Part shown: in pieces, positions 6,123-9,024 of the stretch
Layout of the letters: each line of letters opens with the position of its first letter
Numbering within the stretch: the stretch's first letter is position 1
Virus record (IMG/VR): IMGVR_UViG_3300022750_000190
From: a virus
Lineage: Duplodnaviria; Heunggongvirae; Uroviricota; Caudoviricetes
Strand: one strand, 5' to 3'
DNA length: 12,127 bases
Notes under the pieces: generated by a model
What the model saw: the letters and a program-made list of their open reading frames with translations, nothing else
Databases searched by the model: none
What the model was told of the DNA's origin: nothing
Translations under genes and position numbers: made by a program

Positions 6123-6151
6123 AAGCACTGAAAAAAAGATTCAAAAATGTA

Positions 6152-6180
6152 TTGACAGCGAAAACAAACTGACTTATAAT
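6152..6180 (+). promoter_or_regulatory. Perfect consensus sigma70 promoter TTGACA-17-TATAAT with UP-like A-tracts
   Basis: Exact consensus; A-tracts at about 6131-6147; hairpin ATCTTC-TGAC-GAAGAT (6187-6202) at the predicted +1. Confidence 0.92.
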
Positions 6181-6251
6181 CATCACATCTTCTGACGAAG
6201 ATACAACAAAAAACTTAAATTTTATCAATAACGTAACAAGGATATATCGCA

Positions 6252-6395
6252 ATGCCTATGACTGCACAAGAACAGCGTCAACAAGAAATCGACCAAGCTT
6301 GGTCTGCACATCAAAAGTCTACTGCTCCTAGCAAACAAGATGCTTGGAAGCAAGCCGAAAAACAAATGGGCAACCGCCTGAAATCTTCTGTTTAA
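6252..6395 (+). CDS. Microprotein, GNRLKSSV family copy 1 (47 aa; not in ORF track)
   Basis: MPMTAQEQRQQEIDQAWSAHQKSTAPSKQDAWKQAEKQMGNRLKSSV; SD AAGGA at 6238-6242. Confidence 0.9.
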   Translation: MPMTAQEQRQQEIDQAWSAHQKSTAPSKQDAWKQAEKQMGNRLKSSV

Positions 6396-6436
6396 TCAAA
6401 TCATTTTCTTTTATTTTAAATTATAAGGTAATTATC

Positions 6437-6580
6437 ATGTCTGCCACCACCCAAGAAAAACGTCAGAAAGAAATTGATCAAGCATGGGAAGCCCATCAAA
6501 AATCCAACACTCCGAGCAAAGCTGATGCTTGGCGTCAAGCCGACAAGATTACTGGCAACCGCCTGAAGTCTTCGGTTTAA
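6437..6580 (+). CDS. Microprotein, GNRLKSSV family copy 2 (47 aa; start moved from 6344)
   Basis: MSATTQEKRQKEIDQAWEAHQKSNTPSKADAWRQADKITGNRLKSSV; SD AAGGT; 34/47 identical to copy 1. Confidence 0.92.
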   Translation: MSATTQEKRQKEIDQAWEAHQKSNTPSKADAWRQADKITGNRLKSSV

Positions 6581-6634
6581 CAAAACCTCTTTAATCCTTA
6601 AACAACTTAATCATTTACTAGAAGGTAATTCATC

Positions 6635-6790
6635 ATGGCTACTACACAAGCACAACTCAACGAACAAAAACGTCAAGCCGAAATTGATCAGGCTTGGGCG
6701 CAGCATCAAAAATCCACCGCTCCAAGCAAAGCCGAAGCTTGGCGTCAAGCTGACAAGATTACTGGCAATCGCCTGAAATCCTCGGTGTAA
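6635..6790 (+). CDS. Microprotein, GNRLKSSV family copy 3 (51 aa; not in ORF track)
   Basis: MATTQAQLNEQKRQAEIDQAWAQHQKSTAPSKAEAWRQADKITGNRLKSSV; SD GAAGGT; 34/40 identical to copy 2 over the core. Confidence 0.92.
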   Translation: MATTQAQLNEQKRQAEIDQAWAQHQKSTAPSKAEAWRQADKITGNRLKSSV

Positions 6791-6807
6791 TCGAAAAAAA
6801 ACTCCAT

Positions 6808-6833
6808 AAAAAGCCCCTTACAGGGGCTTTTTT
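6808..6833 (+). terminator. Intrinsic terminator (possibly bidirectional)
   Basis: AAAAAGCCCCT-TAC-AGGGGCTTTTTT, 17 nt after the copy 3 stop. Confidence 0.9.
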
Positions 6834-6834
6834 G

Positions 6835-6863
6835 TTGACTTTAAAACAATTTAGCATTATAAT
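6835..6863 (+). promoter_or_regulatory. sigma70-type promoter TTGACT-17-TATAAT
   Basis: Abuts the terminator T-tract; ATCTT 6 nt downstream of the -10. Confidence 0.8.
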
Positions 6864-6901
6864 AATTCCATCTTAAACGACAACACTCTTTGGAGCATGT
6901 C

Positions 6902-7438
6902 ATGCTTATCGATTTGCAAATTAACAAAATTGCTGCTGTTATGTCTTTTGACAAAAAAGACATCTTTCACCGTCTTGCTAAAATCCTTGAAGAACAAGGT
7001 GAATTGGCAGAAGCTCTTATCCTTAATGACCACAGCGAAATTATTGAAGAATCCATTGATAACTTGATGGTTCTGACTTCTATTGCTTATGTTGTAGATG
7101 ACAATGCGATGGTTCTTGCTCAAAAAGTCGTAAACGATGTTTTTTGCAACCATACTTATGGCTCTAACAGTATCAATAGTCTTTGGATGAACTACAACGT
7201 TGATATTGGTAAAATGTCCAACGCTGTACAAAAGAACCAACGTATTGGTGCAAGCTCCTACAAGGGCTTTGCAACTAGCGAAGAAGTTGTTAGCTTGGTA
7301 ATGGTCGCAATCAGCCACTTGACTGCTTTCATCTCTCTGCACACCCAAGACATTGACCTTTTGAATACAATCATTGTTAAGAAAAACGCCAAATGGCATC
7401 AAAAGACTGTTGAAGGTCAAACCACTAAAGCAGCATAA
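6902..7438 (+). CDS. mazG: MazG-like all-alpha NTP pyrophosphohydrolase (178 aa; start moved from TTG 6890)
   Basis: KILEEQGELAEA...EESIDNL matches the EExGE..E..D metal-binding pattern; C-terminal KKNAKWHQK; GGAG SD (6892-6895) lies 6 nt before ATG 6902. Confidence 0.75.
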   Translation: MLIDLQINKIAAVMSFDKKDIFHRLAKILEEQGELAEALILNDHSEIIEESIDNLMVLTSIAYVVDDNAMVLAQKVVNDVFCNHTYGSNSINSLWMNYNVDIGKMSNAVQKNQRIGASSYKGFATSEEVVSLVMVAISHLTAFISLHTQDIDLLNTIIVKKNAKWHQKTVEGQTTKAA

Positions 7439-8992: not shown

Positions 8993-9024
8993 AAGCCATC
9001 TTATATCAACAGGCTCTTGACCTC

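Follow-up and report, generated by a model that had tools for sequence, protein, structure and literature searches.

The window, by which we mean the entire 12,127-nucleotide stretch of DNA analyzed here, carries a cassette of three tandem paralogous genes for microproteins of 47 to 51 residues, preceded by a consensus promoter and closed by a terminator. The genes are under purifying selection and define a new protein family, although the kind of phage feature to which they belong is familiar. The architecture of the cassette and the coding status of its genes hold with high confidence. The best explanation, one that we rate as evenly balanced between right and wrong, is that the cassette is a self-contained three-gene unit in an early-type, promoter-dense region, and that its product is abundant and acts stoichiometrically. 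The window lies within a metagenomic contig of 604,209 bp; the G+C content is 33%. We treat the contig as that of a giant phage; it looks lytic-type and very large, and no lysogeny genes are seen in the window.

All features of the cassette are on the + strand. The promoter, found by a scan of the window, is a sigma-70-type TTGACA-17 nt-TATAAT sequence at 6152–6180 that matches the consensus at 12 of 12 positions. A perfect match is expected by chance only 0.01 times, as estimated with dinucleotide-preserving shuffles. The first-pass annotation, made from the sequence alone, had described this promoter as the sole perfect TTGACA-17-TATAAT in the window, and indeed no other 12/12 match is present. 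Five further promoters with 11/12 matches lie elsewhere on the + strand of the window; thus, the cassette promoter is the best in a dense array rather than a lone promoter. Immediately 5′ of the −35 box is an A-rich tract, read directly at 6131–6151, that resembles an UP element and may function as one. A stem-loop at 6187–6202, ATCTTC-TGAC-GAAGAT, has a 6-bp stem and a folding energy of −5 kcal/mol (z = −5.6). It begins 7 nt past the −10 box, that is, 0–2 nt from the predicted transcript start. The UP-like A-tracts and the hairpin at the predicted 5′ end, both noted earlier, are therefore present. An A/CA-rich leader, again read directly, extends from 6203 to 6251 and includes the Shine-Dalgarno sequence of the first gene.

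The unit had also been said to be closed by a strong terminator, and an intrinsic terminator is found at 6808–6832 (listed as a part at 6808–6838), with an 11-bp stem, a 3-nt loop, a T-run, and a folding energy of −15.4 kcal/mol. The T-run directly adjoins the −35 box of the promoter at 6835–6863, from which the MazG-like gene is served. A search of Rfam returned nothing at the gathering score, and the weak sub-threshold matches all fall on the terminator hairpin.

The three ORFs each have a Shine-Dalgarno sequence, as first described, the one correction being that copy 2 starts at 6437 rather than 6438. Copy 1 (microprotein P0001, 47 residues) extends from 6252 to 6395 and is preceded by AAGGA at 6238–6242. 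Copy 2 (P0003, 47 residues) extends from 6437 to 6580, with AAGGT at 6425–6429, and copy 3 (P0002, 51 residues) extends from 6635 to 6790, with AAGGT at 6622–6626. The window proteins show 72% identity to copy 1, and 31 columns are invariant in the alignment of the three. The differences between the copies at the C-terminal end had been reported to be synonymous; the final eight codons contain five differences, every one of them a synonymous change at the third position. Among the window copies as a whole, the variable sites number 13, 10, and 29 at codon positions 1, 2, and 3, respectively.

Nei-Gojobori estimates of dN/dS are 0.05–0.24 overall, 0.12–0.19 among the three window copies, and 0.05–0.19 in a related lineage with four copies. 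These values are far from 1 and bear out the proposal that selection acts on the peptide. The dS values between paralogues are 0.55–2.3, near saturation, and those between strains are 0.02–0.18. Since dS between the paralogues is near saturation and dN/dS is low, it follows that the duplications are old and that every copy has been retained by peptide-level selection.

Codon choice in the three ORFs is shifted relative to that in 29 neighboring ORFs. Arg is encoded by CGT or CGC at 8 of 8 positions (background 56%), Leu by CTG or CTC at 4 of 4 (14%), Thr by ACY at 9 of 10 (55%), and Asn by AAC at 4 of 5 (31%). When the 32 window ORFs are ranked by their use of E. coli-type optimal codons, the cassette ORFs are 2nd, 4th, and 5th; pooled, 82 of their 134 codons are optimal versus 1537 of 3187 (Fisher p = 0.0035), for an E. 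coli codon set that may not be that of the host. The comparison covers 134 codons only, and the codon bias is taken as modest support. The conserved promoter, the 5′ stem-loop, the A/CA-rich leader, and the shifted codons mark a predicted high output, in line with the first description of the unit as a high-expression cassette.

The microprotein family consists of proteins of 44 to 51 residues found only on giant phage-like contigs of 0.6–1.9 Mb. Close relatives came from a first profile search, and adding a distant member from a JGI contig led to a much wider set. The family-wide alignment contains 44 sequences, with protein identity down to about 35%, and reading frame and length are maintained across that range. 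Fused or longer forms are absent except for one over-extended ORF call. Only E12, A16, K28, and W32 are invariant in the 44 sequences; I13, A31, and A35 are nearly so.

There are two subfamilies, W-type and Y-type. The W-type, which includes the window copies, has the consensus ...R-Q-K-E-I-D-Q-A-W...S-K-x-x-A-W-K-Q-A-D-K...S-S-V. The Y-type consensus is ...T-K-E-Q-E-I-[DE]-Q-A-Y-A-Q...A-W-K-Q-A-D-K-E-L..., and its members end in ...[KP]-[SQ]-S-V (46 residues) or ...Q-N-K-G-K-D-L (44 residues). The tails vary among relatives: one stably retained paralogue ends in ...ASSVK, another lineage in ...RSSVQ, and others in ...KQSV or ...NKGKDL. Thus, the C-terminal GNRLKSSV, which had been called invariant, is so within the window lineage but not family-wide; with only E12, A16, K28, and W32 invariant across the family, GNRLKSSV is a lineage feature.

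The layout of the expression signals is conserved in the relatives, the loci of which are designated by L numbers. In every relative, the gene or array is the first thing after a near-consensus promoter. All W-type lineages have a perfect TTGACA-17-TATAAT, with a spacer sequence that varies between lineages; reading of the cassettes gives the same hexamers and spacing in L001–L006, L009–L016, L023, and L025. The Y-type copies have TTTACA-17-TATAAT or TATACT. A-tracts upstream of the −35 box are also present in all related cassettes. The 5′ stem-loop occurs once per locus and always 6–7 nt past the −10 box. Its stem is conserved and its loop ranges from 3 to 6 nt: L025 has 3 nt, the window, L001, and L013 have 4, and L015 has 5. 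In L023, the stem is shifted and 7 bp long (TCTTCTG/CAGAAGA). Such variation in loop length favors a hairpin over a protein operator that depends on spacing. The 5′-arm motif ATCTT is common to several promoters in the window, so that what is peculiar to the cassette is the complementary 3′ arm alone. Because ATCTT is shared with these other promoters, the conservation of the stem may belong in part to the promoter class.

In the window, L001, L013, and L015, the unit ends with a terminator, as do 5 of the 6 copies examined in L020 and L021; none follows the gene in L023 or L025. The unit had been proposed to be stand-alone. That description fits the window, L001, L013, L015, and most Y-type copies, but not L023 and L025, which lack the terminator. 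Thus, being promoter-proximal is universal in the family, and being stand-alone is common but not universal.

Variation in copy number among relatives, which the first-pass annotation had suggested recording, is found: 1, 3, or 4 tandem copies, or 3 dispersed ones. Three tandem copies are present in the window and the close strains L009–L011, and four in the sister lineage L001–L006. The more distant W-type lineages L013/L014, L015, L023/L024, and L025/L026 have a single copy. The Y-type genomes (contigs of 0.68–1.86 Mb, including L020–L022) have three dispersed copies, each a separate unit, 2.5–4.5 kb apart. These are counts at the loci examined, and the 604-kb and 1.86-Mb genomes may hold more. 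In a tree based on the codon alignment, the single-copy forms branch outside the arrays. Sister pairs are formed by copies 2 and 3 in the window lineage (bootstrap 84) and by copies 3 and 4 in the lineage with four copies (85), which indicates lineage-specific duplication or homogenization. Copy 2 of L010 contains a 23-nt stretch identical to copy 1, changing D-K-I-T to E-K-Q-M, and from the sequence this looks like a short conversion tract.

The position of the cassette is collinear among the closer relatives and differs in L015, where the unit is directly upstream of a gene for a PEP-utilizer-like protein. A homologue of that gene, 62% identical over the C-terminal half, is found in the window genome about 8 kb upstream of the cassette. 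Across lineages, no neighbor is common to the single-copy and dispersed forms. In the window genome, the cassette is surrounded by small same-strand genes, nearly all without a Pfam match; the annotated neighbors are a MazG-like gene, two SprT-like genes, and a HAD phosphatase gene, with a tRNA cluster a few kb downstream. A neighboring 508-residue protein has distant relatives only, all in phages. The neighborhoods of the family include genes for MazG-like, SprT-like, HAD, Lar-like, Acb1-like (a weak match), and CinA proteins. This content fits what is typical of phage takeover and counter-defense regions and singles out no target. No gene for an AimR/Rap-type receptor is apparent among the neighbors by Pfam or PHROG match, and the genes called in the 10 kb to each side include no modifying enzyme, protease, or transporter.

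The family proteins have masses of 5.0–5.7 kDa (about 5.4 kDa for the window protein) and are extremely hydrophilic, with GRAVY values of −1.2 to −1.7. Reading of the family sequences reveals neither a signal peptide nor a membrane segment. The window copies are basic (pI 9.4–9.8), rich in Lys, Arg, and Gln, and have two Trp residues. The Y-type relatives are acidic (pI 4.8–5.7), and the net charge across the subfamilies runs from +2.6 to −2.5. Given the flip in charge sign and a tail that is not conserved family-wide, a single common partner surface is not obvious.

AlphaFold2 predicts two helices, residues 5–23 and 27–45, whether a 16-row or a 44-row alignment is used, with modest confidence (mean pLDDT 69, pTM 0.3). 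The microprotein is predicted to be a cytoplasmic, two-helix protein. In helix 1, the conserved residues E12, I13, A16, and W/Y17 (i, i+1, i+4, i+5) form one face; in helix 2, K28, A31, W32, and A35 (i, i+3, i+4, i+7) do so. These faces would fit an antiparallel helical hairpin packed through Ala and Trp residues. Antiparallel packing around the loop at 24–27 would set A16 opposite A35 and I13 opposite position 38, a position that is hydrophobic in most members. The surface outside the conserved faces is variable, as is the C-terminal tail. A two-copy complex prediction scored 0.00, a "no answer" that speaks neither for nor against self-association.

That no family could be recognized was borne out by sequence and profile searches, in which no characterized family was matched. 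Pfam, PHROGs, NCBIfam, and PADLOC gave no named relative of the microprotein. In Pfam, the window copies had no match at E values up to 0.1, and the 44 members gave only chance rows. The sole repeated row, phrog_15485 (function not known), has E values of at least 0.0045, matches a 129-position profile in part only, and probably reflects composition. A sequence search of the PDB found no relative; its best match, a designed TIM barrel, shares only the short motif K-D-E-A-W-K-Q and is put down to chance or to amphipathic-helix likeness. When 1.84 billion cluster representatives were compared by profile, all against all, only the family's own cluster was returned. No family match was found in GenBank phages (by DNA and tblastn searches), IMG/VR, or GTDB species genomes, and our search of the literature found no description of this microprotein family. 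Fold searches are uninformative for a helical protein of 47 residues. Foldseek with the AlphaFold2 models gave no match in the PDB, BFVD, AlphaFold DB clusters, or Swiss-Prot; a wide VIA-align search gave generic long or kinked helices at Z scores of 4.9 or less; and the ESM Atlas gave no match, its shape search returning generic small helical models only.

Profile comparisons with three named families were negative. The J-domain model PF00226 is not listed for any of the 44 members at E values up to 10. The His-Pro-Asp loop that J-domains have between helices II and III is also missing, the family loop being S-T-A-P-S-K or Q-E-x-x-x-K; the short, non-significant matches to J-domain helices in the PDB (E 0.2–10) are judged to reflect chance or amphipathic-helix likeness. 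The NKGK-type tail of one subfamily may resemble that of the ribosome-rescue factor ArfA, and ArfA (PF03889) is not listed for any member. Neither the window copies nor the 44 members have a profile match to the lambda CIII family.

We propose that the cassette works as follows. Host sigma-70 RNA polymerase would start at the consensus promoter with its A-rich upstream tract, and the 5′ end of the RNA would be at, or within two nt of, the short stem-loop. Such terminal placement of a stem-loop shields E. coli mRNAs from 5′-end-dependent decay, and the cassette stem-loop may likewise contribute to mRNA stability. Translation would begin at the three separate Shine-Dalgarno sites downstream of the A/CA-rich leader, and the terminator would insulate the next gene. 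The microprotein would be abundant early in infection and would bind by mass action to an abundant cytoplasmic host component, or to a defense or takeover target. Amplification of the gene would raise the dosage, and the tail, ...[KR]SSV here, would adapt the scaffold to its partner. That the microprotein is made early, folds as a hairpin, and acts on such a partner is our inference. The first-pass suggestion of a protein required in stoichiometric excess right after infection, perhaps as an inhibitor, decoy, or sponge, is a reasonable one. This mechanism of stoichiometric binding is plausible, with chances that reach even at best. An extension of it, which we think unlikely, is that the Ala/Trp hairpin is a scaffold with swappable tails, ...[KR]SSV, ...KQSV, and ...NKGKDL, each of which plugs a different host machine or defense sensor.

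Other readings of the same features have been weighed. The basic window copies, with their many Lys, Arg, and Gln residues and two Trp residues, and the predicted very high output, which suits coating, bring to mind an abundant accessory protein that coats nucleic acid or associates with the ribosome. Examples are a small basic helper of phage RNA or DNA or a protein that modulates translation, as opposed to one that inhibits a host protein. The acidic Y-type proteins speak against a shared role in coating nucleic acid, and no likeness to ribosomal, hibernation-factor, or histone-like proteins is found in Pfam, NCBIfam, or the PDB; we regard the accessory role as rather unlikely. The tail itself might instead be the address. 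The basic-then-small sequence ...R-L-K-S-S-V-COOH would then be read by a host machine that recognizes C-termini, such as an AAA+ protease adaptor or pore, and the abundant microprotein would compete as a substrate or inhibit the machine, much as lambda CIII does with FtsH. The tail may resemble C-terminal degrons; ...[KR]-x-S-V or ...[KR]SSV is retained in both the W-type and the Y-type despite differing preceding residues; and a high dosage suits substrate competition. Yet Val is not always the last residue, as the ...ASSVK paralogue and the ...RSSVQ lineage make plain, a whole subfamily ends in ...NKGKDL, and no Pfam model, that of lambda CIII included, matches any member at a meaningful score. 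A decoy addressed by its tail is accordingly quite unlikely.

Short tandem ORFs whose extreme C-terminus is invariant within a lineage also bring to mind a signal precursor of the arbitrium or Phr type, whose mature peptide would lie at the extreme C-terminus, or the precursor of a RiPP; systems of these kinds often have their precursor genes in tandem. Several observations make this very improbable. The N-terminus, M-S-A-T-T-Q-E-K-R-Q..., is hydrophilic, with no visible signal peptide, and the scanned and Pfam-annotated neighbors include no receptor, peptidase, transporter, or modifying enzyme. The best-conserved parts are the two helices, not a short core, and the single-copy and dispersed forms do not share a neighbor. 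Finally, the structured leader and the dedicated promoter and terminator are like those of sRNA genes, so that the ORFs could be incidental and an RNA or a DNA repeat the functional product. The low dN/dS, the saturated synonymous sites, the dominance of third-position variation, the Shine-Dalgarno sequence before each copy, the maintained frame and length, and the lack of an Rfam match at the gathering score render that reading barely credible. The abundant, stoichiometrically acting microprotein remains the reading that we prefer.

Microproteins of less than 50 residues are routinely missed in phage annotation, and the few that have been studied include sharp tools for switching off host machines. 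The family described here occurs only in the largest known phage-like genomes, is under strong purifying selection, always lies first behind a near-perfect host-type promoter, and has been repeatedly amplified. The combination of these traits ranks it with the more promising candidates that these uncultivated genomes offer for a takeover or counter-defense factor that acts in an amount-dependent manner, and the microprotein is small enough for direct synthesis and testing. The promoter, 5′ stem-loop, leader, and terminator are predicted to make up a compact natural high-expression part. If the tail-swap proposal were true, giant phages would tune takeover through tails and copy number, and the family would represent a new class, that of high-dosage, tail-addressed microprotein decoys.

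Among known systems, the cassette resembles the morons, which are autonomous promoter-gene-terminator units in lambdoid phages such as HK97. Like a moron, it has its own promoter and terminator and lies between genes with signals of their own; its placement differs in L015 and is collinear among the closer relatives. Morons, however, belong to temperate phages and are expressed from the prophage, whereas the cassette genome looks lytic-type and the cassette has been amplified to three or four genes. Host-takeover modules of small early genes, such as the immediate-early genes of T4 and genes 37–60 of the Bacillus phage SPO1, are similar in their dense, strong host-type promoters, their strong ribosome-binding sites, and their many very small proteins whose fold is not known. 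No sequence relationship between these modules and the cassette was found, and to our knowledge, tandem paralogues of one microprotein have not been described for them.

Phage inhibitors of this size class include lambda CIII, a helical competitive inhibitor of FtsH with 54 residues, as well as T7 Gp2, lambda Kil, and T4 Dmd. The cassette protein resembles CIII-type inhibitors in size, in being predicted to be helical and cytoplasmic, and in the amount-dependent action proposed for it, but it has no detectable homology to them. We know of no case in which CIII, Gp2, Kil, or Dmd is encoded as a multi-copy array. At the RNA level, the stem-loop is reminiscent of the stabilizer in the 5′ UTR of E. 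coli ompA: it lies 0–2 nt from the predicted start, with a conserved stem and a variable loop. It differs in that its 5′ arm overlaps the ATCTT motif common to several window promoters, and the start to which it is referred is a predicted one. Finally, the gain in copy number of a small gene of the host-interaction type, varying among related genomes, is like the gene accordion amplification known in viruses, as for poxvirus K3L. In contrast to an accordion, the cassette copies are old (dS 0.55–2.2) and each is under purifying selection, making them stable paralogues with occasional short conversion tracts rather than a transient expansion.

The cassette does not keep the same neighbours in all of its relatives. 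In L015, a locus carrying a single copy, it lies immediately 5′ of a PEP-utiliser-like gene. Comparison of L015:209-1163 with L007:76-1602, L007 being part of the window's own genome, shows that this gene shares 62% identity with the C-terminal half of another, which in the window's genome precedes the cassette by about 8 kb. Thus, either the cassette or its neighbours have moved. The downstream side is kept in the 3- and 4-copy lineages, where the cassette is followed by a MazG-like pyrophosphatase gene (window 6902-7438, 178 aa). This gene has its own 11/12 promoter, the -35 box of which abuts the cassette terminator, and a tblastn search of GenBank phages gave no match to it. Two lineages have tRNA genes near the cassette. 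In the single-copy relative L013, a tRNA-Leu(UAA) follows it after about 340 nt (L013:1583-1666); in the window's genome, a cluster of five tRNA genes lies downstream of it at a distance of about 7 kb (L007:17544-19372).

Several strong promoters of the window carry C-C-A-T-C-T-T-A, or a close variant, 3-8 nt past the -10 box, with motifs of this type at 6864-6875, 8993-9003, and 986-1000. The ATCTT of the cassette hairpin is common to this promoter-class motif.

Over 23 nt, copy 2 of L010, a close 3-copy strain (L010:1009-1152), is identical to copy 1, so that D-K-I-T becomes E-K-Q-M. The stretch resembles a short tract of gene conversion between the tandem copies.

A few kb from cassettes of the second, Y-type subfamily is another tiny ORF of 47 aa (L018:5538-5681 and L022:1033-1176). 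Kept between two lineages, it has a very high content of Gln, Lys, and Asn, and its product looks disordered.

Phage-like contigs of about 1.85 Mb were obtained from several independent metagenomes. L017, L020, and L021 are on contigs of 1,859,102 and 1,851,360 bp, and other family members are on contigs of 1,843,594 and 1,917,244 bp. Small genes are densely packed on the same strand of these contigs, and there are Lar-like, T4 Y00F-like, and CinA matches. Since these lengths are close to three times ~617 kb, the contigs may represent a 0.6-Mb genome assembled as concatemers, and not genomes of 1.85 Mb.

Helix 1 of the microprotein, as predicted by AlphaFold2, bears E-I-D-Q-A-W/Y, which fits a pattern seen in helices II and III of J-domains, E-I-x-x-A-Y; in one J-domain from mouse, the sequence is precisely E-I-D-Q-A-W. 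The likeness concerns residues 8-19 of P0003, the copy 2 protein, and PDB entries 1wjz, 4j7z, 1bqz, and 2kqx. Unlike a J-domain, the microprotein has neither an HPD loop nor a Pfam match, and the E-values of the J-domain PDB matches are 0.2-10. Kinship is therefore rejected, and the likeness of helix 1 to the J-domain helices is reckoned to be due to chance.
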